Positions 5,265 to 59,916 of a stretch of 64,000 nt of DNA are shown here, in pieces. The stretch is from Escherichia phage vB_EcoM-RPN242. Positions within the stretch are counted from its first letter, which is position 1. Each line of letters starts with the position of its first letter. The position numbers and the translations under genes are program-made. Location of the stretch: sequence record OL656110.1; one strand, written 5' to 3'. The notes under the pieces were generated by a model. The model saw nothing but the letters and a program-made list of their open reading frames with translations, made no database searches and had not been told where the DNA came from.

Positions 5265-5489
5265 TCAAAGAATGTTGTGTTCGTCGATATCGGACTGCGT
5301 TGCAATCTCCCAGCGGACGATGTTCTCGGTTGTGACGAAATCACGGTTCAGGTGAGAGGCTGGCACATACACCATCGTGTCGACCATGAAGTAACACTGC
5401 TCATTGTTACAAGAATCAACGTAAACCTCGATGAGGCACACCTCGGCAACACCGGCTTTCGGCTTCTTCACGATCTTTTTCAAGTACAT
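5265..5489 (-). CDS. hypothetical protein, 74 aa
   Basis: ATG start, GAGGG upstream. Confidence 0.45.
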   Translation of the reverse strand: MYLKKIVKKPKAGVAEVCLIEVYVDSCNNEQCYFMVDTMVYVPASHLNRDFVTTENIVRWEIATQSDIDEHNIL

Positions 5490-5514
5490 GGTACAACCCT
5501 CGGATAAGTAGACG

Positions 5515-5546
5515 GGGCAATAATACCTCTCGCCCCGTTATTGAAA
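5515..5546. repeat. 32-nt intergenic repeat, copy 1 (gggcaataatacctctcgccccgttattgaaa)
   Basis: Identical 32-mer recurs at 5775-5806, exactly 260 nt away; contains a hairpin. Confidence 0.7.
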
Positions 5547-5549
5547 CTG

Positions 5550-5750
5550 TTATCCTTCTTGTTCTTCCCAACCCCATTCATCTTCCCAAGACTGGCGAGG
5601 GGTCTTGCCTGCTTCGTAATCATCACGCCAGGCGTCGGCGTCGGCGGCTGAACCGCCCTGGCTTTTCGCGACTTTGCATAATACGTCGTGCCACTCACGG
5701 AAAGTGGAGTTGGCGACTGTGGTGTTTACAGAATCTTCTTTCAGGCTCAT
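5550..5750 (-). CDS. hypothetical acidic, Trp-rich protein, 66 aa
   Basis: Track start is TTG inside repeat copy 2; ATG at 5750 has GAGGAAATCACA upstream. Confidence 0.4.
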   Translation of the reverse strand: MSLKEDSVNTTVANSTFREWHDVLCKVAKSQGGSAADADAWRDDYEAGKTPRQSWEDEWGWEEQEG

Positions 5751-5774
5751 TGTGATTTCCTCGATTAATAGAGA

Positions 5775-5806
5775 GGGCAATAATACCTCTCGCCCCGTTA
5801 TTGAAA
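5775..5806. repeat. 32-nt intergenic repeat, copy 2
   Basis: Identical to 5515-5546. Confidence 0.7.
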
Positions 5807-5813: not shown

Positions 5814-7286
5814 TTAGTTCAAGACATATTTGATCAGTCCACAATTCCAAATCCTGACCAACCCGGCTTCGGTTGCTAACTGGCTTTCTGTTTTGCCTTC
5901 TACGTCATACCCCATGCGAGCAAATGAACCTTTTCTGAAACCGAATTTGTGCTCACGCATAAATGTGCCAGGCTTGTGATATTTGTAGTCTGGCTTCTGT
6001 ACTTCCTCTTCTATGAATCCGTGGGATAGGTAAATGTTGGACAACCTGCTTACAACACACCTATCCCCAAAGGAATAGATTTTGGTGTCGGCAAATTTTC
6101 TTCTGAAGTGTGAAAGAAGTTTACTGAATGCCCCGTGGCAATCATTAGAGGCAAATCTGACTAATTCCAGGCCATCTTTCCTTTTAGTGAATAGCATCAC
6201 GGCTTGTATGACCCCACTCTTGTCAATTAACGATAAATGGTGGGTGGAAGAAACGGAACCTTGTATGTGGTGGTTGTCTAAAAACTCCCTCAAGCCGCTT
6301 ATATTTCCCCAAACGACTTTGTGTTGGCGAGCATATGACGCAGGCGTTTTAATGCCAAGTTTAGCTTTCAGAAGAGATTTGACCACTTCCTGTTTCTCAA
6401 CCCATTCATCTTCCCAGATGTGGATCAACTGGATACCCTGAGATTCACATATTTCAGTCTTTTCCAGGTGATAATATTTCTCTTTAAAAACTTCTGAATG
6501 CCAGTACAGGCCATTAAATTCAATCGCCAATTTGTGTTCAGGGCAATAGATATCCAGTTGTTTACCGGATAATATACTGTAATCAGAAACAGTGTTTACA
6601 ACTCCCATTGAGGTGAGAAACTCGGATATTTCCTTTTCATAAGAAGATTTCTTGTTCCTGATAGAACCATTGCTGAACAACGCACGTTTTAGTATGTTCG
6701 AGTTTTTCATAGGGTTGTCAACACCATAACGTTCTTGTAACGTTGCCAACGCCTTCTCCCTCACACCAGGTAATTGTAGTGTGGAGCAGCTTCCGTATTT
6801 GGATATATTCGAAGTCTCTATGGCTTTCCGACCAATCCCACCTTTACACATAGAAACCTGATAACATTCTTCAGAACAATATGTTCTGTAATCTTTATTA
6901 TTGATATAAAAGTTGGTTTCCTTGGAACACACCGGGCATATTTTCACGGTTCTATTGTACAGCCAAGCTGTGACTTTACAAGCCAAATCTTGTAGGGTGT
7001 TGTGGGTATTGGCGAACGCTAAAAGGTCTACATTGATGTGCTTCATAAGCAGTTCAGATTTGCATTTTTGGATATCCAATTTGTTGTTCTTGGTAAACAT
7101 ATATTTGTAGAAAAATTGGCGATATGATTCCTCGTCAGACAATTCATTCACTGCTTCAAGGAAACCTTCCGGGAGGTTCTTTAGGGTGTTCGATGCGAAG
7201 GTCTTGCAAGCATCTGAACAAAATTTCTTATCTTTCCTGGATGCTTTGAACTGTTCATGGCAGACACTACAGATTACCTGATACAT
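5814..7286 (-). CDS. putative free-standing homing-endonuclease-like protein with Vsr/DUF559-type nuclease motif and two Cys-pair zinc-finger-like elements
   Basis: LAIEFNGLYWHSE matches the Vsr-family (F/I)xDGxxWH signature; CSVCHEQF...CSDAC and CPVCSKE...CSEEC pairs; sits next to the capsid gene as segD does in T4. Track start 7382 runs through the terminator hairpin; re-called to ATG at 7286 (GGAGGAG upstream). Confidence 0.55.
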   Translation of the reverse strand: MYQVICSVCHEQFKASRKDKKFCSDACKTFASNTLKNLPEGFLEAVNELSDEESYRQFFYKYMFTKNNKLDIQKCKSELLMKHINVDLLAFANTHNTLQDLACKVTAWLYNRTVKICPVCSKETNFYINNKDYRTYCSEECYQVSMCKGGIGRKAIETSNISKYGSCSTLQLPGVREKALATLQERYGVDNPMKNSNILKRALFSNGSIRNKKSSYEKEISEFLTSMGVVNTVSDYSILSGKQLDIYCPEHKLAIEFNGLYWHSEVFKEKYYHLEKTEICESQGIQLIHIWEDEWVEKQEVVKSLLKAKLGIKTPASYARQHKVVWGNISGLREFLDNHHIQGSVSSTHHLSLIDKSGVIQAVMLFTKRKDGLELVRFASNDCHGAFSKLLSHFRRKFADTKIYSFGDRCVVSRLSNIYLSHGFIEEEVQKPDYKYHKPGTFMREHKFGFRKGSFARMGYDVEGKTESQLATEAGLVRIWNCGLIKYVLN

Positions 7287-7335: not shown

Positions 7336-7363
7336 ACAAATAAAAACCCCGCCGAAGCGGGGT
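7336..7363 (-). terminator. rho-independent terminator after the capsid gene
   Basis: Minus strand: hairpin CCCCGCTTCGGCGGGG followed by TTTTTATTTGTT. Confidence 0.7.
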
Positions 7364-7390
7364 TTGTCAGGGTTAAGGACAACTATTCGA

Positions 7391-8713
7391 TTAGAAAAGT
7401 CCCTTAATTAACCCTTTGCGGAAATACACGTTGCTGTCCTTGGCGATACCATCCGCAGTCACATAGACCTGTGGATCCTGGTTCGCTGGGATCTGAACGA
7501 ATGGGTTAGCACAAATCCCGTAGCGGGTCTTGAATGCCATACGTGGTGCGAAGGTGGTTTCACCCTGGGTGCGGTACATTTCCAGCGGTACATACGGTGC
7601 GAAGAAGATACCAGCGTCCAGCGCGGTTGCGCCTTTGTATGCCAGGGTGATGTATTCTGCTACTGCATACGGGTCGATGTAGACACGCATACCGTTAGAC
7701 AGCACACCAGCGAAGGTCTGGCCAGTCGGATCAATCGCCAGCTTGGTGTTTTCCTGCAGCGCCGGAGCATAATCCAGCATGCCGGACATCGCCAGAGCGG
7801 ATGCTACGTTCGGAGAACACAGAACACGGTTGCCTTTACCACGACGGGTATCAACACCGATGCCGTTCGCTTCAACTTCCAGCATGAAAGTCATGTACTT
7901 CCATTTTTCCAGCGCCCAACGACCGGAGATGTCAGTGGAGATATCTACGATACCATTGGTGCCGAATTTTTTGAAGCGTACTGCGCTGAAGTTCATGGTG
8001 CGGATAAACTCACGGTTCATCTCTGCCTGAATTTCAGTTACCATCACGTCGGACAGGATGCTGTCAACGTCTTCGCCGTGGATCGCCATCATGTCCTGGC
8101 GCAGTTCGTGGCTGTAGTCAGCGTACAGGCCACGAGACTTCGCAGTCACGGTTGCTTTCTGAACGGTGATACCAACACGTGCCCATGGGTTGGTGGTGGT
8201 GCCCAGCAGTTCGGCGTCGGTAGTTGACATACCTTTACCGATGGTGGTAGCAGCGCCGGAACCTTCGATCTCAGTCTGGGAGAAGCCAGATGGGTCGCCA
8301 GCCTGTGCAGTGTCGTCACCAGAGTAGCCAGAATCAGCTTCCTGCATGAACAGTTCTTTACGGGAATGTTGGGTGTTGGAGCCGCCGTCTGAAATGCCCT
8401 GGCGAGCACGCAGTGCGAAGATCTGACCGTCAGGACCAGACAACGGCTGAACGCCGAAGAAGTCCATCGCGATGTTGACCGGAGCCAGACGTTTGGCCAT
8501 GTCGATCAGGACTGGCTGCCATTTGCCCACAGAGGCGTTCACGGAGCCAGGAGCGTCAGATTCGCCCAGGTTTTTGGCGTTCCACTCAGCCTGGTTTTGC
8601 AGCAGACGGACGGCAACGTTTTCGGCAGAAAGCGGCTGGATGCTTTCAGATTCTTTCTGAAGAACTGGCAGCCACTGCTCGCGCATTTGTTCGGTAACAA
8701 GTTTCTTAGCCAT
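7391..8713 (-). CDS. major capsid protein (T4 gp23-like)
   Basis: 440 aa; follows scaffold, protease and portal in T4 order; ATG at 8713 has TAAGGAA upstream. Confidence 0.75.
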   Translation of the reverse strand: MAKKLVTEQMREQWLPVLQKESESIQPLSAENVAVRLLQNQAEWNAKNLGESDAPGSVNASVGKWQPVLIDMAKRLAPVNIAMDFFGVQPLSGPDGQIFALRARQGISDGGSNTQHSRKELFMQEADSGYSGDDTAQAGDPSGFSQTEIEGSGAATTIGKGMSTTDAELLGTTTNPWARVGITVQKATVTAKSRGLYADYSHELRQDMMAIHGEDVDSILSDVMVTEIQAEMNREFIRTMNFSAVRFKKFGTNGIVDISTDISGRWALEKWKYMTFMLEVEANGIGVDTRRGKGNRVLCSPNVASALAMSGMLDYAPALQENTKLAIDPTGQTFAGVLSNGMRVYIDPYAVAEYITLAYKGATALDAGIFFAPYVPLEMYRTQGETTFAPRMAFKTRYGICANPFVQIPANQDPQVYVTADGIAKDSNVYFRKGLIKGLF

Positions 8714-8804
8714 GATGGTCATTCCTTACATTGATATTCAGTTAAGTTGAAATTACTTAGTAGTTCAAAATCAAGCCCCCTTTCGAGGGCTGTGGCTGCT
8801 AAAA

Positions 8805-13217: not shown

Positions 13218-13931
13218 TTACACAATTCTAATTAGCTGCCAACCCGTCGTGTTCAAACGCTCTGCGGTCGCAGTTTTCCTATGATACACAGACGGTGGTG
13301 GAACTGGAATACCCTTGTCGATGTAATCATAGAGTGCTGAATATTTAAGTCCCAACCTCTCCACGTATTCGCGACAATTCCCGTGGATTTCGTATTCTTC
13401 GCCGGATGGAGATACCAATTTGAATCGCTTGGCATGACCGTTGTTCTTGCCCTTTCTGATTCCAGTTTCAATGCATTTTCGACTAAATGATAATTTACCT
13501 TCTTCTTTCCATTCAACCCCGATCCGACAGCTAATGATTTCTCCTGTTTTCCACCGTGGATCATCGCAATCAACTAAACCGAGATGTTCACCAGTAGAAG
13601 TCAAAACTGCTCCGTGTTTATTGGAAAATGTGGACCCGTCTCCACCCCAGGTCTTGTTGTACCCTTTCTGAGTTGACATGTGGGTTCCGTGTTGCTTTAT
13701 AAGAATGATTTCCAATTCTTTTAGATCTTCCAGGGATTTGGTCTGGGCTAACACTTGAACAGAAAAGGACTCTTCTCCGTACTTTCTTATTGCTTGGTGA
13801 ATAAAGTAATCAGATCCCTTCTGAGCACTATTGCAGTGCTCCCACCACCTTTGCATAGGGTCTCTCGTCGTTATCCCAATATAGGCTTTCTGATTGACTA
13901 GATTTGTAATTTTGTAAACACTTCCGATCAT
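13218..13931 (-). CDS. GIY-YIG homing endonuclease, free-standing
   Basis: N-terminus VYKITNLVNQKAYIGIT...RWWEH is a GIY-YIG signature; inserted between sheath and tube. Confidence 0.8.
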   Translation of the reverse strand: MIGSVYKITNLVNQKAYIGITTRDPMQRWWEHCNSAQKGSDYFIHQAIRKYGEESFSVQVLAQTKSLEDLKELEIILIKQHGTHMSTQKGYNKTWGGDGSTFSNKHGAVLTSTGEHLGLVDCDDPRWKTGEIISCRIGVEWKEEGKLSFSRKCIETGIRKGKNNGHAKRFKLVSPSGEEYEIHGNCREYVERLGLKYSALYDYIDKGIPVPPPSVYHRKTATAERLNTTGWQLIRIV

Positions 13932-13987
13932 TTCGATGCTCTCTCAGTAAAATCGTTCCATTTTAACCCGCGAGAGACCATTGAAAT

Positions 13988-26755: not shown

Positions 26756-27114
26756 ACCGAGGAATAGAAAGAAATAAGCCCGAAGGGGCTTTGATTATCT
26801 TTCTGTGGTTATGGTCATGGATTCAAGACCTCCGCATTCTTCAGGAACTATTGCAGGGGTGCTGGTACAGCCAGGGAATGGAGAACGCAAACAAGGCGAA
26901 CCAATGGAACCACAGTAGTAGGTTCAGATGCTAGTGTTAAGGTACAGGGTACAGACATTGCCAACAGAGATAACGTATTAGCCACTTACACACTTGGTTC
27001 GACAGACCCTTTCATGGTAGAAGGTATTCAATTGGGTATGTTTAATATCTCTGGGCAAGTAATCACCTTAACAGCAGTATCAATTAGGGTAATGCAAACA
27101 GTAAATTCTATATA

Positions 27115-27140
27115 AGAAAAGACCCCAAATGGGGTCTTAG
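27115..27140 (-). terminator. terminator hairpin AAGACCCCAAATGGGGTCTT after tailspike gene
   Basis: Minus strand: hairpin followed by TTTCTTATA. Confidence 0.6.
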
Positions 27141-27155
27141 TTTTACAGTTATAAG

Positions 27156-29381
27156 TCACGCTTCTGGCGAGGGGATAGTAAACCAATCGGACGCTGTTCC
27201 TGTTGTAGTGCCTTTATGCCTCCAGCCACTAACAGTTCTTTTTACCGTAGGGCTATCCTGCCAACCTGTTGCCGGGAGAAAGAAATTCCTCACTGGGGCG
27301 GGGTTTAACGCTCCAGTAGCTGGCGTGGCGGTTCCAGTCTGAGATGATACGAAGGTGGTTACTGTTGAGTAATCTATTACGTTATCATCATGAAACGCAT
27401 TCGTGTATAGATTTGCGGGTGCTGAGTTAACGAAGAATGCCGTAGTAACCCCGCTAACCTTGTTTCTATATACGTTGTTCCATCTACAGTTACCACCAAG
27501 GCGTATACCCTCAGAATCAGAAGCCCCCGCAATGGTGTTACTATCTATGTCACAATATTGGAAACTTTGAGCTACTAAAAACCGGCAACTATTACGCGTA
27601 ACCCTGCCGTAAGTAGACGTACCATTGGCATAGTAAACTGTTATATTGCCAGATGTTAAACAGTCTTTAATCGAGAAATTGGTCATAGGGCTAGTAAGGT
27701 ATACACTGCCAGTACCTTTCACTGTAATGTTTATATTTTTTCTAACTGTCAGGGTGTATGCGGGCGCGCTATACATACTGACTATATACCCGTTCGCCCC
27801 TGTATTTACAGGGACATTTGCATCCACTGTCACATAATCACAGTCCTTAATTAATATCGCAGCGGTTGTTTGAGCGCCAGTCTTTACGAATCTAATAGAC
27901 GGGTTTGTGATGGTAAAGTTCTGGCATTGCTCCATAAAGATAACGCCTGATACTTGATCGTCTGCCGCCAGCGAGTCTACAACAATACGCTGAGCACCAA
28001 ATGCCCCCATAACCCCATACTTTCCGCCTTTAATATAATCAGCATGGGTGTTGCAGTCGAAGCATTTTGCACCAAAATATATACCTCCGTTGTTGGCCGT
28101 AGGTTTTAGGGTGTTATGGGATGTACGGATGTTACGGCAGCCAGCATAAGATATTATTTGCGCATCCCCACCGGTCCCTCCAATGTGGGTCGTACCTGTA
28201 ACAGTACAATCTGTAGATCCGTAACCAAAAAATATATTACCATTTCCGACACGCCCGGTATGGGTAGTGTTGTGGTACACCACACCGTACGCGTTATCAT
28301 GCCTTGAACCGCCATTTCCATTATAATCAAAAACAGTACCATGGAACTCTATAAGCGAAGCCCCCACAGATTGGTACATGTAGCTAGACCCTGACGCAGA
28401 ATTTTTTAAGATTCCCCCGATGAACTTAGTAGCGTTGCCTTTTATAAGATAAATAACCGAATTGGTGGTAGTTAGGTCCCACGGTAAAGCCGTTGCTAAA
28501 TTTACGGTAGCACCTGATATGGACGAGATTAAAAAAGATTCGCCTTGGTATCCGGTTACATCCGGATTCTGTGCGTTGGCAATATACCAAGCGTCACTTG
28601 TGTCCTCAGTGCGTATTACCAACGCCCGAGTATACCCAGTTCCTGCCACCTCAGATGTTAATGTGATGGACGTTGCTCCGGAAGCCGCAGGGGAAAGCAA
28701 GCTGAATTGGCTCTCGCTGACGAAATTAAGAGCATTAGCGGTCAATGATGTCAACCCAGCACCGTGACCGAAAGTAAAAATCGTACCTTTTGGTATGTTG
28801 ACTTGTGAATGGGAAATTGTCATGCCCGGAGGAACAAAAACATTCCCCGAGTTAATGGCTAACTGTAAACTAGATGCCTCATCAGACCCATCACCGACAA
28901 CCCCAAAAGCACGCACGTCCCGTAAATTAGGATCTGTCTGCGGCTTCCAGTCAGCGTTACCAACTGGGTTAGTTCCTGCGACAATAGTTACAGGTAAGGA
29001 ACCTAAGTAGGTGTAACCTATGCCATTATAAAATAGTAATTCATTTCTAGTATTCACAACTAAACCAGTAGCAAACGAGTCGGATAGGTTCACGAACTCT
29101 CTACGTGTAGCAGCCAGTTCCCCCAAATCAACTGTGCCTGCGGAATGAACCAGGACTGCATGTTTATTGAGGCTTACGGCAGTGGTTCCTACTGGAAGTA
29201 CAGGTAATGAGTAAGCACGTTGGGTAGACTTGTCATAGATTACTTTGTAGCCACCCAAGTCCACTCCCACAGCAAAGTAGACTACTTCATTTTGCTTAAC
29301 ACCAAACTTACGAGCAATGGCTTGCTTATTGGTAAGAATACCAGTAGAGCCTTTACCGCCTTGTGAGAACATTTCGTTCAT
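27156..29381 (-). CDS. tailspike protein (741 aa)
   Basis: N-terminal module (KQAIARKFGVKQNEVVYF...YKVIYDKSTQRAYSLP...VDLGELA) is shared with the other tailspike genes. Confidence 0.7.
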   Translation of the reverse strand: MNEMFSQGGKGSTGILTNKQAIARKFGVKQNEVVYFAVGVDLGGYKVIYDKSTQRAYSLPVLPVGTTAVSLNKHAVLVHSAGTVDLGELAATRREFVNLSDSFATGLVVNTRNELLFYNGIGYTYLGSLPVTIVAGTNPVGNADWKPQTDPNLRDVRAFGVVGDGSDEASSLQLAINSGNVFVPPGMTISHSQVNIPKGTIFTFGHGAGLTSLTANALNFVSESQFSLLSPAASGATSITLTSEVAGTGYTRALVIRTEDTSDAWYIANAQNPDVTGYQGESFLISSISGATVNLATALPWDLTTTNSVIYLIKGNATKFIGGILKNSASGSSYMYQSVGASLIEFHGTVFDYNGNGGSRHDNAYGVVYHNTTHTGRVGNGNIFFGYGSTDCTVTGTTHIGGTGGDAQIISYAGCRNIRTSHNTLKPTANNGGIYFGAKCFDCNTHADYIKGGKYGVMGAFGAQRIVVDSLAADDQVSGVIFMEQCQNFTITNPSIRFVKTGAQTTAAILIKDCDYVTVDANVPVNTGANGYIVSMYSAPAYTLTVRKNINITVKGTGSVYLTSPMTNFSIKDCLTSGNITVYYANGTSTYGRVTRNSCRFLVAQSFQYCDIDSNTIAGASDSEGIRLGGNCRWNNVYRNKVSGVTTAFFVNSAPANLYTNAFHDDNVIDYSTVTTFVSSQTGTATPATGALNPAPVRNFFLPATGWQDSPTVKRTVSGWRHKGTTTGTASDWFTIPSPEA

Positions 29382-29669
29382 AATGACCTCTTTGTTTTTC
29401 TAAGTAAGCCTCCCAACGTGGGGAGGCATGTAAGTAAAGTTATTTACCGATTCTCAATTCAGCTAACCAACCTAGAATTTGTTTATTGATTCTAGACGGG
29501 TAAGCAGCCTCTAACCATGCACATCGGTCTGGTATTAAACCTCACCTTGAACCAGCAGGAGTAACAAATTCTTTCCATCCTTTCTGTAGAACTCAGGTAT
29601 ACGCTTCTTTAATACCATTATTACCAACAATACTTGCATACACAACAGACACTAAACTCTATATAAGAA

Positions 29670-29688
29670 AAGGTCCCGAATGGGACCT
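29670..29688 (-). terminator. terminator hairpin AGGTCCCGAATGGGACCT
   Basis: Just past gene end 29700; minus strand followed by TTTCTTATAT. Confidence 0.55.
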
Positions 29689-29699
29689 TTATAATAAAA

Positions 29700-32108
29700 T
29701 TAAGGGCTAACCCGATACCACCCGTCGTAGCTAATATACAAACGTTTACCGGACACAACTGCATCAATGCGAAGCGTTTTTTCACCTTCAGTAAAGAACG
29801 CTCCTCCAGTGTTCCCGATGTTCATTCGAAAGCTGGCTGGAATATTTCCAGAGGTAAAACCGATGTCCCCGTTGTTCACCCCTGTTACTGCTATGTATGC
29901 GTAATCCCGCGCGACAGGAAATCCTGTCACAGATATGAACTGACTGGTGCCGGAACTCCATTCAATTGTCACATCAAACACACCGAATATATGAGCAAAA
30001 TCTCCGACATAATTTATGTTATGTACGGTATACTCGCCGTATGATATCACCGCATTGGTGCCTGATTGAACTGTAATTTCAGGCGAACCGGGGTCATTCG
30101 CTAAGAAAGTACGGTCTGGTCTGATTTTGGCGGATGAATTCGCCACCGTTCTGGTAACGTTGTTGAGCCAACCGGCCTCCACCGGATCCCCATTTCGCGT
30201 AGACCTTACAATGTTGTTACGCAATATTGCGTTAAAAAACGTAATATCGGAGATGTAAATATTATGGTGCTGCCCGGCTACGGCCCCGCCAAACAACATC
30301 CCATTAGAGTTGTACTCATAAGATACGTTGTTCTCAATGATGCTGTTGCGCGCCACTCCATTTAATTCTAGCCATGATATGTTAGACGGGCCTGTGTAAT
30401 CAGAACCAAGTCTAATACTGGTGTTATTGGTGAATGAGCTATGGTCGAAATTATCCAATCTCCAGTTAATACCCAGAGTGCCTTCTTGACCATTCCCAGT
30501 TACCGTTACCCCTAGCAGGTTCTGTAATATATAGCCATAACACACTCTTGTCCTGTCCGGATAATAGTCGTTCCTGTTAGTGTGATCACAGGCATTAGCC
30601 TCTATAACAGAGTATTTAAGATCCCGATAGCAATGCCCATAATCACGGCAACTATTACTATAGTTAGTAGATATTACGCATGAAGTGCCGTTGTTTATAA
30701 ATATCCCACCGAGACATGCGGTAACGCGGTTGTTTCCTACTCGCGACGCAAATACAACAGGGAGAATTAGCCCATACTTGCAATCGTAAATATAGACGTC
30801 TTCTATCGTGGCGTCGGATACCACGCCTGCATTTACGATACCAAATTCTACCGCGTGGTTTTCCGTTGTAGTTTTTGTCCCATGCAGAGTAACCCCTGTG
30901 ATGACACCGGACCATCTTGAACTACTAGAATCCCCTAAACAAATAACCGCATTCATATCTGTAGGCAGGGTTCCGGTATATCCTCCAGATAGTGCAGGCG
31001 CCGTCACCAGAACTGTAACGGTAGTGGATGTCGTTTTCGTTATAGTAACTGATTCGCGACTTCTCCCTATTACTGATACATTCGATGGTAGAGCAAGAGT
31101 ACTGCTTATTTTATAGTTACCATCCGGGAAATAAACCACGCCTTTTGTGGTGCTGGCATAAGCTATAGCTGCTTTTATAGCTACCGTATCATCAGTAGCT
31201 CCGTCACCAACAGCACCAAAATCTTTAACGTTATAGTAGTCTTTAAAATGGCTATCAATGGTTCGCTTAATTGCAGAAGAAACACCAGATAAGCCAGAAT
31301 TTACTAATGTTCCCCCATCAGTAACCATAGCCGTTTTATATACCTGCAACTCATTCTCCACTGGAGTTACATCATTGGGTGCAGGGAGCAGGTCAACAAC
31401 AATCCCACCAGGATTGTATGTTAGTTGGTCACCATTAACGGAAGAAATATATACGTTAGTAGGCAATGTAGGCAACCCATATGCCTTCTGCTCACTAACA
31501 GAATAAATAATCTTCTTACCATTGAGGGACTGAGTAGTATCGGTGCTAAGAATTACTTCACTATCTTTAACGTTAGTAGCACGAGCGATTTCTTGAATAC
31601 TTCGGTCAAACAACGGACTGATATTCGGTTGTTTAACAGACATTTCAGCGACTACCCAAACGCCTGCTGTCAGCGCAGTTTGTAAAGACACTTTCCCTGT
31701 CGTGCTGTCATAGGAATATTCAATTTCGGGTGTTTTGTACTCACCACCGATATAAAGAGATTGGACTCCATAAGATGTGTAATCAGGAGTGAACTCGGTT
31801 TCACCTCCTATAGCCTGAAACTTATAGATTCGAATCCCAGTTTTATAATCTTCTGGAGACAGAATCTTATCAAACAGACAGAACACAACGTCACCTTTGG
31901 ATAATGCGCGTCCGAGATTTAACGTATTTCCATCGATTTCAAAGTTGTCTAACGGAACTTGCATACCACCGTTGATTGTGACTATACCAGTGACAGGGTA
32001 GAAAGGGAGGGAGATAAACTTCTCTCCGCCCGTTGCTGTGTAAGTGTATGGAATCTGGTGCGGAGCTGTTACGACCGCTCCAAAGATGCTCTCGACGTTT
32101 CTGGTCAT
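29700..32108 (-). CDS. tailspike protein (about 802 aa)
   Basis: ATG at 32108 follows GGGGTATTTTCAA; shares the module IARATNVKDSEVIL...KKIIYSVSEQKAYGLP with the others. Confidence 0.7.
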   Translation of the reverse strand: MTRNVESIFGAVVTAPHQIPYTYTATGGEKFISLPFYPVTGIVTINGGMQVPLDNFEIDGNTLNLGRALSKGDVVFCLFDKILSPEDYKTGIRIYKFQAIGGETEFTPDYTSYGVQSLYIGGEYKTPEIEYSYDSTTGKVSLQTALTAGVWVVAEMSVKQPNISPLFDRSIQEIARATNVKDSEVILSTDTTQSLNGKKIIYSVSEQKAYGLPTLPTNVYISSVNGDQLTYNPGGIVVDLLPAPNDVTPVENELQVYKTAMVTDGGTLVNSGLSGVSSAIKRTIDSHFKDYYNVKDFGAVGDGATDDTVAIKAAIAYASTTKGVVYFPDGNYKISSTLALPSNVSVIGRSRESVTITKTTSTTVTVLVTAPALSGGYTGTLPTDMNAVICLGDSSSSRWSGVITGVTLHGTKTTTENHAVEFGIVNAGVVSDATIEDVYIYDCKYGLILPVVFASRVGNNRVTACLGGIFINNGTSCVISTNYSNSCRDYGHCYRDLKYSVIEANACDHTNRNDYYPDRTRVCYGYILQNLLGVTVTGNGQEGTLGINWRLDNFDHSSFTNNTSIRLGSDYTGPSNISWLELNGVARNSIIENNVSYEYNSNGMLFGGAVAGQHHNIYISDITFFNAILRNNIVRSTRNGDPVEAGWLNNVTRTVANSSAKIRPDRTFLANDPGSPEITVQSGTNAVISYGEYTVHNINYVGDFAHIFGVFDVTIEWSSGTSQFISVTGFPVARDYAYIAVTGVNNGDIGFTSGNIPASFRMNIGNTGGAFFTEGEKTLRIDAVVSGKRLYISYDGWYRVSP

Positions 32109-32140
32109 TTGAAAATACCCCATAAAGGATTTGCCAATAT

Positions 32141-32151
32141 GGGGTATTTAG
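32141..32151 (-). promoter_or_regulatory. late promoter CTAAATACCCC with inverted repeat
   Basis: CTAAATACCCCATATTGGCAAATCCTTTATGGGGTATTTTCAA-ATG; 12-bp arms. Confidence 0.6.
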
Positions 32152-32185
32152 TCTGAACTAATAAATTTATAAACAAATGTATAGA

Positions 32186-32220
32186 GAAACCCCGCCGAAG
32201 CGGGGCTAGTTTTTATTTGT
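32186..32220. terminator. hairpin CCCCGCCGAAGCGGGG with T-run on the plus side
   Basis: Same hairpin core as at 7347 and 34851; located just past the end of 32227..34776. Confidence 0.55.
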
Positions 32221-32226
32221 GGTGTG

Positions 32227-34776
32227 TCAATTGAGTTTTGATATCTCTACAGTTATACCGAATACGTTATTCGGTCTACTTGTGGTTGTAGCTATAGTTA
32301 GCTCAAAGAAATGCGCGTTTATATCTGGTGACTGTGTGTATCCCGCAGAATTAGTTAATGTTACATTGAGTGATATGTCCGAATCTGTTACGCCGTTTAT
32401 GCGAATTTCATTCACAGGTCCTGATAGCGACGCGGCGGAAGTTGCACCTATCTTATGATTTACCAGGTACGTCTTCTCAATATAAGCAACGGATCCCCCA
32501 TTATTATATGAAGAGCACGACTTAACTTTTACCAGTAGGTTTTGCGATTCTAATGTTCCATAGTTATCAAAAATCTTTAAAACTTTGTTAGCAGATGCAC
32601 CAGAAATGCTTCCACAGTTCACTTCCCATAATGTAGTTCTATTCGCATTCGGTGCGTTCTCATACATGTAGAAACTACCATCTGGAATTACCCTGTTGTT
32701 TATTAATGTTTTCAGATTTCCGCAGTTACCTATTAGTCTCACGTGGGCATTGATGTTTGTTAATGTTACTGTTTTTATTTTTGATTCTGTGTTTGCGCAC
32801 CTAATAGAACCACCCATGCAGTTAATATTTTCGTAATAGACATTACCAGCTTGCCACGGTAACGCGAAAATATCGTCCGCCCGGTTTTTATAATTGAGCG
32901 CAACATTAGCAGCAATCCAGTCTCGGTGCATAGAAGAATCACCAGTAAATGTGACGATACCTATTTGAGGGTCTTCTGCTGGGGTTGTGCCCAAACTGGC
33001 AACTATATTGATATCTGTCAGCTCACCACCAAGACATCTTATATTTGGCATATCATATTCTTCGGTGGCAAATACGTTACGCCATTTAGCATCAAAACCA
33101 GCGTGCGAGTCCATCGTGGCGAAGTTATTATAACCGAAGCACTTTTTAACCTCGAACTTGTTGAACCATGTTGTTGGGGAGGCAGCATGTCTACAGAATG
33201 ATGCTGTGATGCTATCAACAACTGTATCGTAAGTGCCCGCCGCAGGGCTGATAGGATACTGACACCTATTAGCAACTACATTGCCAATCCTTGGCATATA
33301 GCAAGCTATTAATAAGTACGAGGAACCACCACTGGTTTCCACGTCACCAGAAAAGACTGGCATATAAAAACCACGGAACCATGAAGATGAAACCCCAAAT
33401 GATGCGGTGCCTATATTAACAAAAGATGAGTTATCACGGTTGTTAAAGTGCTCCATCTTGAAGTTATTGAAAATCAACCTTACCGGTTTGTACCTGTTAA
33501 CCTTAACGTTGTTTGCTACTAGATGATCGAATAGCGCTGGCCTATCAACTTTCATATTAGAACCAGATTCACGCTCTGCAATAAACAACTCCCTTGAGTT
33601 AAAATTCCACTGAGTCTCGTACGTCTTGTTGTCCTCTATATAAATCAAATCACCCTCTACAGCCCCAGCCACCCGCGCAACTGTGGAGCCGCTTACCATA
33701 TCAGCTAGAAGTGAAGACTGAATCTCGGTTGATGACAGGTGCATTTCCACCCCATCAGAGGCCCCGAACAGCTTTATGCCAGACCAATCAACAACTAAGT
33801 TTTTATCAATCGACAATAGTTCTATATTACTGGTTACAGTAACCTCACCGACTGACCTGAAGTATCCACGGCACCCGGATGTGTAAGCTACAGTCAGGAA
33901 TTCAGATATAGTCTGGCCTGATACAGACCCTCCAGCGGTTATGCCGAAATCATCTCCGCAAATCGCGCTTATAGGGGTAAATGATGTTAATGCCGGCTGG
34001 GAAGCAGACCTGACCCACATTGTACCGCCGGTTGAGCATACCGAATCTACAGGTAACTCTGCCTCCGTGGACGCAATCATCTCGTAAAAAGAGGAGAAAT
34101 GTTTGTATATTCCAGCAACTTTGTAACCACCAGTTATAGGATTAGTCCCAGCGACAACTATACCAGCAGGACCGGAGAACGCCTTACCAGTGCGTTCTTG
34201 TAGTAGCACATCGTTGGCGTTCACTAGTGTACCGCCCGACTCAAAGCTACCATCTACTAGATTATAGCCTGCTGTTGCATAGCTACGGCGCAACGCCTCA
34301 CGGGTCTGTGTACTTGTGAACTGATTGGAGCACCTAATATAACCACTCCCTGGAAGAGTAGGGTCTGTGCCAGCAGGAACTACTTTAGGTAATGCCCCAT
34401 CCCAACGGTACTTCCCATCTGTAAAGACAACTAATTCATTCTTGGTATTAACTGTTACACCGGTATCAAATGACCCAGACAATGTGACGTACTCTTCACG
34501 AGATACAGCCAATTCCCCGAGATCTACAGAACCTGCTGAATGTACCAGGATTGCCTGTTCGTTCAGACTTATCGCAGTCGTTCCTGAAACAATACCTGAA
34601 GGAAGAGAATAAGCCCGTTGGGTAGACTCATCATAAATTACTTTAAATCCACTGAGATCAATACCAGCAGTGAAATAAATGACTTCGTCTTCTTTGACAC
34701 CGAAATTTCGAGCGATAGATTGTTTGTTAACTTCTATGGAAGTGGAGCCGCGTGGTTGATTGAATTGAGAAATCAT
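32227..34776 (-). CDS. tailspike protein (849 aa)
   Basis: Shared N-terminal module; contains a 160-bp segment nearly identical to one in the next gene. Confidence 0.7.
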   Translation of the reverse strand: MISQFNQPRGSTSIEVNKQSIARNFGVKEDEVIYFTAGIDLSGFKVIYDESTQRAYSLPSGIVSGTTAISLNEQAILVHSAGSVDLGELAVSREEYVTLSGSFDTGVTVNTKNELVVFTDGKYRWDGALPKVVPAGTDPTLPGSGYIRCSNQFTSTQTREALRRSYATAGYNLVDGSFESGGTLVNANDVLLQERTGKAFSGPAGIVVAGTNPITGGYKVAGIYKHFSSFYEMIASTEAELPVDSVCSTGGTMWVRSASQPALTSFTPISAICGDDFGITAGGSVSGQTISEFLTVAYTSGCRGYFRSVGEVTVTSNIELLSIDKNLVVDWSGIKLFGASDGVEMHLSSTEIQSSLLADMVSGSTVARVAGAVEGDLIYIEDNKTYETQWNFNSRELFIAERESGSNMKVDRPALFDHLVANNVKVNRYKPVRLIFNNFKMEHFNNRDNSSFVNIGTASFGVSSSWFRGFYMPVFSGDVETSGGSSYLLIACYMPRIGNVVANRCQYPISPAAGTYDTVVDSITASFCRHAASPTTWFNKFEVKKCFGYNNFATMDSHAGFDAKWRNVFATEEYDMPNIRCLGGELTDINIVASLGTTPAEDPQIGIVTFTGDSSMHRDWIAANVALNYKNRADDIFALPWQAGNVYYENINCMGGSIRCANTESKIKTVTLTNINAHVRLIGNCGNLKTLINNRVIPDGSFYMYENAPNANRTTLWEVNCGSISGASANKVLKIFDNYGTLESQNLLVKVKSCSSYNNGGSVAYIEKTYLVNHKIGATSAASLSGPVNEIRINGVTDSDISLNVTLTNSAGYTQSPDINAHFFELTIATTTSRPNNVFGITVEISKLN

Positions 34777-34802
34777 GATAATACCCCAAGAATGACCAAT
34801 AT

Positions 34803-34813
34803 GGGGTATTTAG
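34803..34813 (-). promoter_or_regulatory. late promoter CTAAATACCCC with inverted repeat
   Basis: CTAAATACCCCATATTGGTCATTCTTGGGGTATTATC-ATG. Confidence 0.6.
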
Positions 34814-34848
34814 TCTGAACTAATAAATTTATGAACAAAGTTATAATA

Positions 34849-34872
34849 AGAACCCCGCCGAAGCGGGGTTTA
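34849..34872. terminator. hairpin CCCCGCCGAAGCGGGG
   Basis: Third copy of this hairpin core; just past gene end 34876. Confidence 0.55.
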
Positions 34873-34875
34873 TTG

Positions 34876-37800
34876 TTATGATGCATTTGCTGATTTGTTT
34901 AAATACCATCCGTAGTTCGTTTTTATTAACTCTACAATCTCCCCGTTTGTCTTGTATTTTGTCTTCCCGGTTTCTGTATTATACATAATTCTGTCGGTGA
35001 CAGAGACGCCGGACGCTTGTTTTGAAAGCGTCACAACAGTGTTGCCGGATAACGGAAGTATTGATATCCTTTGTCCGATATATCCACCAGTGATTGACGT
35101 TATCACTGATCCATTACTTCCAGCGTCGAGATAAAATACGTCGCAAGAGTTGGCATCTAATGTAGTTGTTTCAGTTGTTAGCGTTTTCGTTGGCGACGAA
35201 ATACCAAGCACAAATGATGAACCGTTCCATGTATATTCTTTGCCGTCAGCAAGACCAATCACTCGCTCGTTGATTCTTAAATCGGGTGCAAAAGTCTTTC
35301 TAATGTCAACAATTTTAATAGTGCCACAAAACGGGACAGGGATAATCACGTTACCTGCAAGCCTGTTAATAGTGTAAATTGAATTGCTGATCGTCCACTG
35401 TCTACCGTTCCACATACTCATAAATGAACCAGAAGATAGAAGCACGGTTGAACTGTAACCTGCTTCCAAAGCATTTGTGTCTGTTATCATGCCGCGATCA
35501 ATAGGATTGCTAAAATCGTCAGAGCAGTCGAATACTCTAATGTTTGCACGTCCTTCATAATTACCTGATTGACCAACAGGTGCGATAACAAAGAGATAAT
35601 CCTTATCAAAACCATAATCAGGGCCAACGCGTAAGAACGACGCCATACAGTTAGTGGTAGGGAACTGTCCTTTTACAACCCACTTTCCACTAGAATCTTG
35701 CATCAATAGCTTTTGAATGGCTATTTTGTACGGCTTAGTGGTCGTATCTGCTGCGCGCTCAATGGCAAACGGTGTTCCGTCATAAAAATTTCCGAAACCA
35801 ATTTCACCGCCAGATGTACCGAGAGTATCGGTATCCGTGTCTTTCCTGACATCTTCACCGTAGGTGTAGTTACCGCTATCATCAACTGTGATATACCCCT
35901 CAACTATTCCGGTAGATAGTTGAGTTAAATAATAATAAGGAATTGCAGGCTTGCCATTTATGTACCCGACTTGTGTAGGTGCAATTGATGAGAAGTAAGC
36001 ACCAGATGGTTTAACCAATGGCGTAATATCAACAGGGGTGCTCCATGTATTGCCACCATCCTTTGATATGACATATTCAATAGTTGATGTTGTGTCAGGG
36101 TTAGTTCCTTGTTGTGCATGCCCCCACCCAGTAATCCCCTTCATTGATGTAAAGAAACAATACAAATATCCATCAAGATTATTTAGGAATAGTACCGTTT
36201 CAGAAGTGGCATATCCTGGCCCTTTGTTAACAACAGTTCCAGTGGTCCAGTTCACACCGTTATCATCAGATATTAGGTAATCAATGTGCATAGGTGTGCC
36301 GTCCTGTCCTGGGTCAATATTAGCACCATCCTTCACTGTGTAGATACATACCACCCGCCCACTTGGAAGTGACACCGCTTTTGGTGCAAAGTTAAATACA
36401 TTCTCCACATAAGTTTGCAACTGTAAGCGCAAATTATTGTTAAAGCTTCTTGAGTATTTATTCCCAAAAGCGAAATTAAATCTATTTTTTGCAATTGATT
36501 GCCTTTTGTAAAGCTCAAAATCTTTATCCTTGACTGCTCCGTTAACTAAATCAACTCCGTCATCATCAGCCAGGTCACTTCTTAAACTTACATCACCAAC
36601 ACTTAACCATTTTCCTGCACCAGTACCACCAGCACTCCCTGGGGTTGAGCCAGCAGAAACCTCTTTAGGCAATTCCCCATCCCAGCGATACTTCCCATCT
36701 GTAAAGACAACTAATTCATTCTTGGTATTAACTGTTACACCGGTATCAAATGACCCGGACAATGTGACGTACTCTTCACGAGATACAGCCAATTCCCCGA
36801 GATCTACAGAACCCGCTGAATGCACAAGTACAGCGGAAGGACTAAGACTGACAGCAGTAGTACCAGGGGCAATATCAGCAGGCAAGGGATAAGCCCTTTG
36901 CGTCTCCTTGTCATAAATAACTTTATACCCACTTAACGCAGCACCAACACTAAAATAAACGACCTCTGTATCTTTAACATTGGTTACACGAGCAACTTCC
37001 CGCAAAGTATAATCAATTTGATTGTAGATGTTTGGTGTTCCATTGATAATTACAACAACTTCATCCTCTGGTTCCAGTTCTTGCGCAAGAGTGATTTTAC
37101 TGGTTGATGGATCGAATGTGAATCCCAGATTTTTATACTGGCGACTTCCGTTTATATCAATGGCCGGAACATCGTCAACAACGACGTCCAACGTGATTTC
37201 GGTTTCACCGCCAATCGCTGAACCCCCATTATAGACCCAGGTAATCGTAGAAGAACCAGAACCACCGACATTACCCAATTGAATAGGAGTATATTCAATC
37301 ACCTGAAGTTCTGTGCTGGCTGGCAAAGAAGGACTGAAAGTGATTACATTCCCATCTAGTGAATATTTGGATTCCGCAAGACGTTTTCCGTCAGCATACA
37401 CGTCCACGATTGTTGGTGGAGTATTGAGAGCGACAGAACTTGTTTCAGACGCCAAAATTTTTGTAAAGATTTCACGACTGTAGACACGGCCTTGGCCAAG
37501 ACCGACGCCGGATGTAATAATCCAACCTTGTTCAGGTCCAGACCAAGTGAACGTTGCTGATACGTTATCAGTTGTTATAGCCATGTCTTCAGTGGAGCCA
37601 TACAAATTATTTCCAGAAGGAGACACGGTCAATGGGTAAGTGGCAAATTTCCCATAAGCATCACAAATAGTAACGGAATCCCCAATACGCGTAGGGGAAG
37701 GGAGAACCACTGTAGATGCCCCTGTGGTATTATTAATGAGATAGCCTCGCCCTTCAGTGAGCGTTGCCGTAGAGGCATGCGGAAGGACTTCCCAGCGGAT

Positions 37801-41946: not shown

Positions 41947-42265
41947 CCAACGGGAATCAAAACGGCTCGCGCGCGTTTAATTTATTCGAATATAACTCGC
42001 GAGGGGGCTGACGCCCTCGCTCGTAACACCGCCCTGTGCGGGCAGCACCATTCCACAGCCATGGAGGCTGCTTCTCGTTGTTCGTTGACACTCACAACTC
42101 GAAGGGCACTGCGTTAGGATACAGTTTCTTGATGTTGTAGAAAAGTAGTTTTTACCTATTAATAATCACTGTCATTATTTTATTGGTCATTCCTGTGTTT
42201 ATATTCAATAAACATACTCCCAATATAATAACGGAGACATTTAATCAATCCAGTGAGGCTCCGGA

Positions 42266-43039: not shown

Positions 43040-44864
43040 CTCAAAGAGGAGAGGACTTTTCAAATTAGCTGGGCTGCAGTAAAGTATTAAGCGTGAGGCG
43101 AACAACGCATCGAGTTAGGCATCTAAAGCCGACCTCGCTAATCCCAGTCTCAGGGGCATGCGTGAATAGAGGCGTGATATCCACCTTGCATGGTGTCAGT
43201 GGACGCACTTGACCGTCGGAGAACGAAACTCCCTGTTGTAGCGTGATTAGCTCAGAATCAGAGAGCACCCCGTTGGCAAGTCGACACCAACACAAGGGGA
43301 GGTCGGGGGCGCTAATCTCCATCACGCCGACAACATTATGAGTCTTCCATAGAGGGTTCATAATGTTGCGTCAAAGGGCAACAAGGTTCCTGTTGGTTGA
43401 ATTAACTTGATTCATAGTTCCTACTGATCTTCCCGGATTCGAAGGATCACCAACAGGCGAGGCCGGATGCGTAAGTTCCGGTAAATCGATGGTAACGCCC
43501 TCGCCAACAAAAATAAAAGGTTTTATCAATAACGGGTTACAAAGTATAGTTAACCCACTGAAGCGAAAAGCTGTTTGGGCATTAGACAAACACTTCGATG
43601 TGAACCCAGGACATGGTGTCTTGTGCTCAAACAGGTTTTCGTTTTCGTTGTGCGTGACTTTGCGGGTTTTTAGAAACTGACCAAGCAAATAACTGCTAAT
43701 GATTCCGAAGTTCTGATGGCGGCGTAACAGCCTATAAGTCAGTGAGGTCTTCCGATTCCTCATCACCAAATTCGGCGCACTAAAATAGACGGGAGGGTGT
43801 GATTAATAATCTCCCGTCGACAATGCCGTTATATCTGACTGTCCAAAGGGGATAAGCTCCTGAGTAAGCAGAGGTGGGTTGCCTAAGTCAGATGGGATGT
43901 AAGGTCAGCGCTGGCCAAGCATTTGGGTTCGACTCCTAAAAACGGCTCCACATCTTTGAGGATATTCTCACGAGTATCTTGAAAGATGTGAGCGAAGTCT
44001 TGCCATCAGCCCTGATCCCTGGCAGGTGAAGGGCACACAAATCGAAGTGTCTTGACAATTTATCTTAAACCCAAAGGTTGATCTAGAAATTGGGCGGCCA
44101 ATCCGGTGGACGATAACAGCATATTGGGCCATACTGTTGAGTCAGGGCACTTCGATTTGTGAACTTGAGAGAGCATTGGGTGAAATAGACCATGCCTTGC
44201 AGATTGCGATGTCTACACATTCCGGACACTGGTGGACACCAAGAAGAACTCAGTAGCAGACGAGCCATCAGGGTTAGCTACCCGGCGCGGCGAGGACTGG
44301 GAGGCCGAACTAAGGGGAAACCCGAGACAGGCGTAGTATTCTCAAGTTCACAAAATGAAGAGCATTAAAGAACTCGCAAAGGACCTGAAATTGGTATCCC
44401 TGGCTTGTACCACTGAGTGTTCTTCATCTTTGGGTGATTCTATGTTGCCGGGCTATCAACCCATGCTTGCTGGAGCAACCAGCGGCTCTGAATCAACCAG
44501 CCAGCCTCGTTTGGTCCGAGCGTTAGAGGACAAGTTGCTTCTACATGGAAGTTGCGAGTTGCGACATTGGTTGCAACTTTGATGGCTCTGGATTTTATAA
44601 ACCATGTCTATGGGTGACGCGGGATCTTTAGTACCAGAGCTATCAAAGTTGTGTCCAACCCGATCTTACAAGCCCGTATCCCGGTCTGGTTAAGACTTGT
44701 AAGTGGAAAGCCCTGGAAAAATAAACGCCTGTGGCGAGGCTATGGTGCAAGCCAAAGACTCACAGAAGCGCATGCCGTGAGGCAGCACAAAGAGGCATGC
44801 ATGAACTGATCATGCACAAACGGGATAAAGGGTTGACAGTCCTTGGTCGGACACACAATAATTT

Positions 44865-44941
44865 GGTCCTGTAGCTCAGTGGTAAGTAGCAGTGAACTCA
44901 TAATTCATTGGTCGTTGGTTCAAATCCAACCAGGATCACCA
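44865..44941 (+). tRNA. tRNA with CAU anticodon (Met or Ile2)
   Basis: Hand-folded cloverleaf: acceptor GGTCCTG/CAGGATC, anticodon loop CTCATAA, T-arm GTTGG-TTCAAAT-CCAAC, encoded CCA. Confidence 0.75.
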
Positions 44942-45193: not shown

Positions 45194-45282
45194 GGAAGGT
45201 TGCCCGAGATGTTTAAGGGACTCGACTGCTAATCGAGTGGGGCTTTTAGCCCCCGAAGGTTCGAATCCTTCACCTTCCGCCA
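45194..45282 (+). tRNA. tRNA-Ser (GCU) with long variable arm
   Basis: Acceptor GGAAGGT/ACCTTCC, anticodon stem CTCGA/TCGAG with loop CTGCTAA, variable arm GGGGCTTTTAGCCCC, T-arm GAAGG-TTCGAAT-CCTTC, CCA. Confidence 0.75.
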
Positions 45283-47704: not shown

Positions 47705-48169
47705 ATGAAAACCTTTCTTGAATATCTTAAAGAGGCGTCTGAGGCTGAACCCAAGTTCGATAACATGCGCCTCTTTCACGGCTCCAACGTAGGATTCGAT
47801 GTCTTCGACTTTGAGCGCTTCGGTCAGACTGACTGTGGTACGATGGGACCTGGGTTCTATCTGACAGGCAACGAAGAAGAGGCACAGCGCTATGCAGAGA
47901 ACGCCGTCCGCTACCGCCAGAGTGGTGAACCCCATGTTCTGGTGTTTAACGTCAGTGTTAAGAAGCCCCTCGAACTCGACTCTAACAATGTCTCGGCCTG
48001 GGAAGACGCTATGCGTGAACTTGGTATCGAACCGGGTAAGATCCATGAGAACGCCGCCGAGCTAATTGCTCAGGGCTATGACTCCACCATCGTGCTGGAC
48101 CGCTTTGGGTTGCCTATGGTGCGTGAGATCGTCCTGTACAAACCAGGCCTGGCAGTGCGGGAAGCCTAA
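47705..48169 (+). CDS. late-expressed hypothetical protein, 154 aa, with an HGS motif
   Basis: RLFHGSN...GFYLTGN suggests a nucleotide-modifying fold but is unverified; driven by a late promoter. Confidence 0.55.
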   Translation: MKTFLEYLKEASEAEPKFDNMRLFHGSNVGFDVFDFERFGQTDCGTMGPGFYLTGNEEEAQRYAENAVRYRQSGEPHVLVFNVSVKKPLELDSNNVSAWEDAMRELGIEPGKIHENAAELIAQGYDSTIVLDRFGLPMVREIVLYKPGLAVREA

Positions 48170-54781: not shown

Positions 54782-54843
54782 TTCAATAAACCAAAGGGGG
54801 ATATAATTCCCCCTGTTAACCCTTTGACAAACAGGTGATTGAA

Positions 54844-59848: not shown

Positions 59849-59875
59849 TCTGATTGCGATTGCGTTCTTCAATAA

Positions 59876-59916
59876 AGGGGAATGGGTTAATATTAGCCCG
59901 TTCCCCTTTCTTTTTG
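59876..59916 (+). terminator. rho-independent terminator
   Basis: AGGGGAATGGG...CCCGTTCCCCT followed by TTCTTTTTG; preceded by the TTCTTCAATAAA motif. Confidence 0.7.

Follow-up and report, generated by a model that had tools for sequence, protein, structure and literature searches.

A duplicated putative promoter-type element beside a homing endonuclease gene in Escherichia phage vB_EcoM-RPN242

Why should a phage genome hold the same 32 nucleotides (nt) twice, 260 nt apart from start to start, each time in a narrow intergenic gap? In the 64,000-nt stretch of Escherichia phage vB_EcoM-RPN242 analysed here (record OL656110.1; hereafter the window), the sequence GGGCAATAATACCTCTCGCCCCGTTATTGAAA has two exact matches, at 5515-5546 and 5775-5806 of the + strand, and an earlier reading made from the letters alone (the sequence-only reading) was right in reporting this identical repeat. 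The genes around the repeats are all on the - strand, however, and on that coding strand the repeat reads TTTCAATAAC-GGGGCGAGAGG-TATTAT-TGCCC, with both copies containing TTCAAT-AACGGGGCGAGAGG-TATTAT. The sequence-only reading followed the + strand and thus missed this arrangement of TTCAAT, 14 nt of spacer (N14) and TATTAT. The answer that we consider probable as a whole, while well short of certain, is that the copies belong to a promoter-type element, that conversion next to a homing endonuclease gene made them identical, and that recombination between them can remove the unit that carries one small gene. The window comes from an Ackermannviridae phage (ViI-like, Aglimvirinae-like), whose closest relatives are Escherichia phages YX22 (97.7% over 3 kb), LHE287, ZQ1 and AV101.

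The repeat and the family's putative promoter motif

Each copy occupies the space that separates an upstream stop codon from the Shine-Dalgarno sequence (SD) and ATG of a small gene. The repeat starts 3-7 nt past the stop codon and ends ~10 nt ahead of the SD, and on the - strand the motif starts 55-56 nt ahead of the ATG of each of two open reading frames (ORFs), ORF-B and ORF-A. The likeness between the two places stretches to 44 nt at 91% (5503-5546 and 5763-5806). The order on the - strand is capsid gene, terminator, Hef-like gene, copy 2, ORF-B, copy 1, ORF-A and then more small genes; the parts closest to the repeat, with lengths in amino acids (aa) or base pairs (bp), are these:

5814-7286, - strand: Hef-like free-standing homing endonuclease gene, 490 aa (phrog_3339, E = 2.5e-156), with its stop codon 7 nt upstream of copy 2
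5775-5806, - strand: copy 2, a chimeric ORF-B leader (TTCAAT 5805-5800, TATTAT 5785-5780)
5796-5774, - strand: stem of copy 2, 7 bp
5550-5750, - strand: ORF-B, 66 aa (phrog_519, function unknown; ATG 5750, SD GAGGAAAT 5762-5755)
5515-5546, - strand: copy 1, the ORF-A leader element (TTCAAT 5545-5540, 14-nt spacer 5539-5526, -10-like TATTAT 5525-5520)
5538-5512, - strand: stem of copy 1, 9 bp, ACGGGGCGA/TTGCCCCGT
5265-5489, - strand: ORF-A, 74 aa, served by copy 1 (phrog_7113, function unknown; ATG 5489, SD GAGGG 5501-5497)

A Pfam search of ORF-A and ORF-B gave no match.

What kind of sequence is this? The string TTCAAT[N14]TATAAT is cited in the EspM4VN genome paper as a 'unique regulatory motif' of ViI-like phages/Ackermannviridae, alongside CTAAATAcCcc, and a promoter role has been proposed for it, but only proposed (PMC7283392). 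The hexamer of the repeat, TATTAT, matches TATAAT at five of six positions, and both copies are, by their sequence, instances of the family's known putative promoter-type motif. The pattern TTCAATAA-N(8-14)-TAWWAT is matched six times in the window against 0.01 expected, with N = 12 in all six, and TTCAAT and TAWWAT stand at the N14 spacing at seven sites. In the complete genome of the sister phage YX22 the same two boxes are found at 11 sites with N14 and at 0-2 sites for each other spacing from 8 to 21. At the clear sites, both copies included, motif and downstream gene share a strand, and the ATG follows ~54-65 nt after the start of the motif; at a few sites the start codon is farther away or no clear ORF comes downstream. 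The motif, its spacing specificity and its orientation are thus direct observations. Between paralogous sites, the spacers are wholly different from one another.

The conservation of the leader is likewise observed directly. Over 15 genomes, 3 columns vary in the 48-nt core of the ORF-A leader, as compared with 32 variable positions among the 74 third-codon positions of ORF-A, and the leader is the same whatever gene lies upstream, be it ORF-B, o315, o858 or an endonuclease gene.

We propose that each copy is probably the core of a phage-specific promoter-type element made up of the TTCAAT(AA) box, the 14-nt spacer, TATTAT and an overlapping G/C-rich stem-loop; copy 1 would be the native, highly conserved leader of ORF-A, and copy 2 would head ORF-B. 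Each element would start transcription of its small gene, early or in mid-infection. Promoter activity, timing and any role of the stem are what we infer from these sequences.

Could the repeat instead be a small mobile or dispersed element of the REP or MITE type? Its palindromic form, small size and intergenic position would fit, and the sequence-only reading had called it REP-like and proposed a search of the full genome for further copies. No further match with up to 3 mismatches is present in the window (shuffles expect 0), and the complete genome of YX22 also holds only two copies, which differ from each other at 4 of 32 positions; there is no dispersed family of the sequence in either. 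Moreover, the copies have no terminal inverted repeats or target duplications, and they are fixed at orthologous positions upstream of the same genes in many phages. We give this explanation next to no chance.

Two labels that had been attached to these small genes are corrected by the analysis. The automated start of ORF-B, at 5780, falls inside copy 2 and had been taken in the sequence-only reading for an artefact, which it is: its TTG shares the final base of the TATTAT hexamer, Ag3 and YX22 have TTA in its place, and the ATG at 5750 with its SD is the start annotated in YX22, Ag3, A221 and PC3. The gene start accordingly moves to 5750. The second label is temporal. Both copies had been placed between small late genes; their intergenic position stands, but copy 2 adjoins the 490-aa homing endonuclease gene, and the word late has to be given up. 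The family's second published motif, CTAAATACCCC, which is a probable late promoter, is absent upstream of ORF-A and ORF-B, although the window has eight sites against 0.5 expected, and a strong terminator follows the capsid gene:

7391-8722, - strand: major capsid gene
7344-7365, - strand: canonical intrinsic terminator after the major capsid gene, AAACCCCGCTTCGGCGGGGTTT then a T-run

This terminator sets the late capsid transcript apart from the repeat region. The eight CTAAATACCCC sites lie at 187, 3384, 32141, 34803 and 38071 (-), at 47671 and 48166 (+) and at 47696 (-, one mismatch). The gene at 47705-48169 has a copy on either side, and the pair at 47671/47696 is an inverted repeat just before its ATG.

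The stem-loops

If the boxes form a promoter-type signal, what is the hairpin for? Copy 1 folds with 9 bp at -16.5 kcal/mol (z = -0.84; 42 of 200 shuffles fold as well) and copy 2 with 7 bp, two of them G.U pairs, at -11.8 kcal/mol (z = -1.26; 20 of 200 shuffles as well; GAGAGG/CCTCTC is an alternative), and the stems of the two copies differ. The view of the sequence-only reading that this is a duplicated regulatory element containing a hairpin gains support in this form. Other motif sites in the window carry stems of very different strength:

59868-59893, + strand: paralogous site whose 16-bp stem has the -10 at its centre; a T-run comes next, making a composite promoter/terminator (z = -5.55)
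62648-62673, + strand: paralogous site whose 16-bp stem has the -10 at its centre; TTTTT comes next (z = -5.35)
54782-54807, + strand: paralogous site with stem AGGGGGA/TCCCCCT enclosing TATAAT (z = -2.44)
42204-42229, + strand: exact motif TTCAAT-N14-TATAAT with a weak stem, at a transcription divergence point
13960-13985, - strand: exactly spaced motif TTCAAT-N14-TAAAAT, upstream of the gene at 13218-13931

A variant motif at 43525-43550 (+), ATCAAT-N14-TATAGT with stem GGGTTA/TAACCC, heads an ORF-poor stretch with tRNAs, and may be the promoter of a tRNA cluster; tRNA-Met and tRNA-Ser lie downstream of it, at 44865-44941 and 45194-45282.

The stems at 59868 and 62648 have the form AAAGGGG...CCCCTTT, followed by T-runs, and the combination of box, stem and T-run is kept in Agtrevirus, Limestonevirus, Kuttervirus and Taipeivirus. 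More generally, when a stem is counted if it has at least 7 bp with at least 3 GC pairs and encloses the -10, YX22 has stems at 4 of its 11 motif sites compared with 11 of 241 control hexamers (Fisher p = 0.002), and a minimum free energy of -10 kcal/mol or lower is reached at 5 of 11 motif sites and 33 of 241 controls (p = 0.014). The -10-enclosing stem is genuine, though confined to part of the motif sites, roughly one third to one half. Orthologous stems showed no double-sided compensatory changes; the changes found there are one-sided and preserve pairing (in the ORF-A leader and at 59868/62648). An Rfam search of the repeat gave no match at gathering score, the lone match being to a CRISPR repeat model at 17.5 bits against a 35-bit cutoff (E = 0.95), which is chance level.

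These stems invite the explanation that the hairpin itself is the signal, acting at the level of RNA at the 3' end of the upstream genes as a duplicated intrinsic terminator, an attenuator or a processing or stabilising site, with the boxes incidental. A 7-9 bp stem stands directly past the upstream stop codon in both copies, the paralogous sites at 59868 and 62648 have genuine hairpins of terminator type, T-runs included, and the common C/T change in the ORF-A leader preserves a G.U pair on the sense strand. The duplicated terminator, which was among the suggestions of the sequence-only reading, can be set aside at the repeats, as neither copy appears in a terminator scan and neither stem is followed by a T-run, the tails being CTACTTATCC and TATTAATCGA; compare the capsid-gene terminator at 7344-7365. 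The z-scores of the two folds are slight, and the constant feature is the boxes and not the stem, given the spacing-specific pairing of TTCAAT with the -10 and the exact but hairpin-free motif in Taipeivirus phage Menlow. An RNA-level signal with incidental boxes seems quite unlikely to us.

For the promoter-type element, the stem-loop would form in RNA read through from upstream and may act there as an attenuator or insulator, or perhaps as a processing site; transcripts initiated at the element would lack the 5' arm of the stem. The o183/o315 leader of relatives makes a related observation in its own right. It has TTCAAT-N14-TATGCT and an 11-14 bp stem with an SD (AGGAG) in the 3' arm, in Ag3 (2017-2108 of locus L004), RC-2014, SKML-39, EspM4VN and pSal02; there, read-through RNA would hide the ribosome-binding site and element-started RNA would expose it.

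Origin of the two-copy state and loss of ORF-B

How did two neighbouring leaders come to share 32 nt? Copy 2 is a chimera, of ORF-A-leader type in its 5' part and with the native ORF-B leader (TCTCTATTAATCGAGGAAATC) from ~5774 downstream. Where ORF-B has no adjacent endonuclease gene (Ag3, CAU_YEP3, Menlow), it has a leader of its own that is related but different: in Ag3 this native leader is TTTCAA-N14-TATTAT with stem GAGGGTA/TACCCTC (z = -3.9), and CAU_YEP3 and Menlow each have a further version. The Hef-like gene is a homolog of LIMEstone1 F-LimVII, and the ORF-A-type spacer CGGGGCGAGAGG precedes ORF-B in no genomes but those where this gene lies directly upstream, namely the window, YX22, A221, PC3/PH4 and fGh-Ecl02. 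The ORF-A-type tract in copy 2 is shortest in YX22, where it ends before GGTATCATTACCC, longer in the window and A221, where it ends after TTGCCC, and longest in PC3 and fGh-Ecl02, where it ends after GCCCCGTCTA. These chimeric junctions can be read off the genomes directly, and box, spacing and -10 are intact in all of the chimeric leaders.

The endonuclease-bearing genomes have in common a block that is 97-100% identical from ~120 nt inside the endonuclease gene onward; upstream of that point, the endonuclease alleles are only 40-60% identical. Because this block spans the endonuclease-bearing genomes, we read the two-copy state as probably of single origin, followed by conversion tracts of differing length between adjacent paralogous elements, i.e. 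concerted evolution. Several independent origins are unlikely, given the same block. The proposed course of events is that ORF-B at first would have had its own related but different leader, and that in the lineage with the Hef-like gene the 5' part of this leader would have given way to ORF-A-leader sequence when the neighbouring paralogous elements recombined or underwent gene conversion. This replacement would have produced the exact 32-nt direct repeat, and the direct repeat would in turn permit precise loss of a 260-nt unit, consisting of one element and ORF-B, as in sister phages.

The loss can be seen in LHE287, which compared with the window and YX22 is without exactly one 260-nt, repeat-bounded unit, and ORF-B is the gene that this unit carries. 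The precise indel is plain from the alignment; recombination between the copies would account for sister phages that lack exactly one gene. A search of IMG/VR with ORF-A returned 3 loci only. One IMG/VR locus (L009) and phage ChubbyThor have the same arrangement of endonuclease gene, leader and ORF-A as LHE287. In LHE287 (locus L002), ORF-A itself has a 2-nt insertion (GGTCGAGACACG) that frameshifts the gene, and the record annotates a 135-nt remnant only.

Is the second copy of any use to the phage? The duplication might be a neutral scar of co-conversion driven by the homing endonuclease, with copy 2 adding no function over the native ORF-B leader and the repeat being only a substrate for deletion. 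The confinement of the ORF-A-type spacer to ORF-B leaders immediately downstream of the Hef-like gene fits this well, as do the mosaic boundary inside the 3' end of the endonuclease gene, the differences in copy 2 among phages and the replacement by the endonuclease gene of one downstream ORF (pSal02, locus L010), two (the window type) or three (the LHE287 type). Yet this is compatible with the promoter-type element and not opposed to it; the chimeras keep box, spacing and -10 intact, which suggests retained function, and the ORF-A leader, being identical in endonuclease-plus and endonuclease-minus genomes, is not a discriminating target. We regard a purely neutral scar as unlikely.

The region downstream of the capsid gene is hyperplastic. 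Between the capsid gene and ORF-A there are 0-4 small ORFs, endonuclease genes of two families, and ORF-B either present or absent; at the position after the capsid gene RC-2014 has a NUMOD3 endonuclease gene, and other genomes have 2-4 different small ORFs. ORF-B is an old gene, found in 189 records with Taipeivirus and Kuttervirus among them, and it was lost more than once. The idea of ORF-B as a roaming cassette was rejected, as each genome has it at a single place and all the loci inspected have it downstream of the capsid gene. Outside the family, ORF-B (phrog_519) has weak tblastn matches, for instance in records of Stx2a-converting phages and of Morganella and Enterococcus phages. Its C-terminus, WEDEWGWEEQE (5558-5588), resembles IWEDEWVEKQE of the endonuclease (6386-6416), with 77% nt identity over 31 nt, possibly by chance.

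Elsewhere the window and YX22 differ in several ways. In YX22 a ~390-nt internal deletion (window 47739-48130) affects the gene at 47705-48169 and is bounded by neither motif, and parts of the ORFs at 59931-60143 and 60140-60526 (window 59986-60330) are missing through intragenic deletions just downstream of the 59868 site. The DNA polymerase gene of the window has a 1.18-kb insertion relative to YX22 (52016-53201) that contains an ORF of 292 aa (52161-53039) and is probably of the intron or intein type with a homing endonuclease, as described for LIMEstone1. The tailspike region (26840-36590) is a mosaic against YX22, with patches at 70-90%, and a 188-nt module at 28966, 34361 and 36641 is presumably the conserved N-terminal anchor of tailspike genes.

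Related elements in T4-type phages and the meaning of the locus

How does the locus compare with known systems? The closest to hand is the Ackermannviridae motif itself, with the same box, 14-nt spacing and -10-like hexamer, intergenic and on the coding strand in the same phage family. The literature gives exact-consensus occurrences only, however, and the stem-loops, the tandem duplication and the part in gene gain and loss seen here are absent from its description.

The PeSL/PmSL cassettes of T4-type phages are composite promoter/stem-loop elements among ORFans (Arbiol et al. 2010, PMC2839356; Comeau et al. 2014, PMC4122927). The likeness is extensive: stop codon, promoter boxes, a G-rich/C-rich stem-loop that mostly overlaps the -10, SD and ATG are packed into a single gap; the setting is a variable, hyperplastic region of small ORFans that differ between close relatives; a sister phage (LHE287) retains one element and precisely lacks the ORFan that otherwise stands between two; there are chimeric elements with differing crossover points; and A3-4G3...C3T3-4 stems recur, here at paralogous sites. 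In contrast to those cassettes, the phage family is Ackermannviridae and not Straboviridae, the box is TTCAAT at N14 and not the sigma-70 arrangement TTGACA N17 TATAAT or the TGCTT Mot box, the two repeat copies have no T-run and an unexceptional fold (the sites at 59868 and 62648 are clearly stable stems), and the evidence for shuffling comes from one locus only. The element may thus be called functionally PeSL-like; a proven PeSL it is not. The open-access literature yielded no account of PeSL-type elements for Ackermannviridae.

T4 middle promoters offer a second comparison, since there too a conserved box (the MotA box, with TAnnnT) ends 12 bp upstream of the -10 and no sigma-70-type -35 is present (geometry: PMC4122927). 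The sequence of the box is different, and MotA/AsiA, the means of sigma appropriation in T4, is reported absent from ViI-like phages (PMC3184105). From this geometry comes one more alternative, namely that the element is mainly a binding site for a phage-encoded DNA-binding transcription factor, in which the box would lie 12 bp ahead of the -10, in the manner of a class II activator site or of the T4 Mot box, and to which the invariant spacer and the stem would belong. The distance from box to -10 is the one found in T4 middle promoters and in the PmSLs of phage nt-1, the whole 48-nt leader and not the boxes alone is near-invariant, and the early and middle control of ViI-like phages is stated in the literature as unexplained (PMC3184105). 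But such a factor would have to be postulated, and the spacers differ completely between paralogous sites, which leaves the TTCAATAA box as the sole possible common site. We find this alternative distinctly improbable.

A third likeness is to promoters embedded in hairpins. In the T4 genes e, soc and I-TevI the promoter is placed within a stem-loop: RNA that reads through it folds, RNA initiated at the promoter is without the 5' arm, and translation is thereby controlled. Here too a putative promoter stands in a stem-loop, and the o183/o315 leader of relatives even has its SD in the 3' arm; unlike the T4 cases, the main stem of the repeat copies leaves the SD uncovered, and the timing would be reversed, with an early or middle promoter within late read-through.

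A number of points weigh against the combined explanation of promoter-type element, conversion and repeat-mediated loss, and they are best taken together. A sigma-70 consensus scan does not call the repeat sites, so a sigma-70 promoter at the repeats was rejected, and with a spacer of only 14 nt a sigma-70 -35 contact is out of reach; MotA, AsiA, Alt and ModA are reported absent from ViI-like phages (PMC3184105). We found no transcript-mapping study for any member of the family in the literature searched. Exceptional stability of the repeat hairpins was considered and rejected, as they are no better than composition-matched shuffles, and their stems lack a T-run; over the 11 YX22 sites as a whole, folding energy is only modestly shifted (Mann-Whitney p = 0.08). 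In Taipeivirus (Menlow) ORF-B is preceded by the exact motif without any stem, so that some sites at least can do without one. The near-invariance of the ORF-A leader could be due partly to homogenisation by recombination and not to selection. As for gene loss, the absence of ORF-B from SKML-39, RC-2014 and pSal02 is tentatively ascribed to intragenic fusion deletion and not to the repeat. A general role of the motif in indels was rejected, no motif-bounded case being present among the other examined differences between window and YX22 outside the tailspikes (two read base by base as intragenic deletions, and the one DNA polymerase insertion; two replacements were left out).

A bolder proposal deserves mention. 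The elements could be the early/middle promoters that have long been sought in ViI-like phages; a phage factor would help to read them, the stem-loop would be an integral insulator, and PeSL-type gene-shuffling cassettes could be general beyond the T4 family. It is suggested by the TTCAATAA box at the Mot-box position, the missing sigma-70 -35, a family reported to be without MotA, AsiA, Alt and ModA, and the near-invariant 48-nt ORF-A leader; we hold it to be fairly unlikely. On a more sober view the locus is instructive but fairly ordinary modular phage evolution.

Why, then, is the locus of interest? ViI-like phages are in wide use as candidates for biocontrol and therapy, and their early and middle transcription is unexplained: the T4 factors are absent and canonical sigma-70 promoters few. 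It is said of these phages that sigma-70-type promoters are few and that early promoters could not be identified (PMC3184105; PMC3121705). The locus is a compact example of the family's candidate promoter with natural variants at hand, comprising the native ORF-B leader, three chimeras, a hairpin-free version and a natural deletion. Additionally, the T4-type logic of a promoter plus stem-loop as recombination linker would appear to operate here too, beside a homing endonuclease gene.

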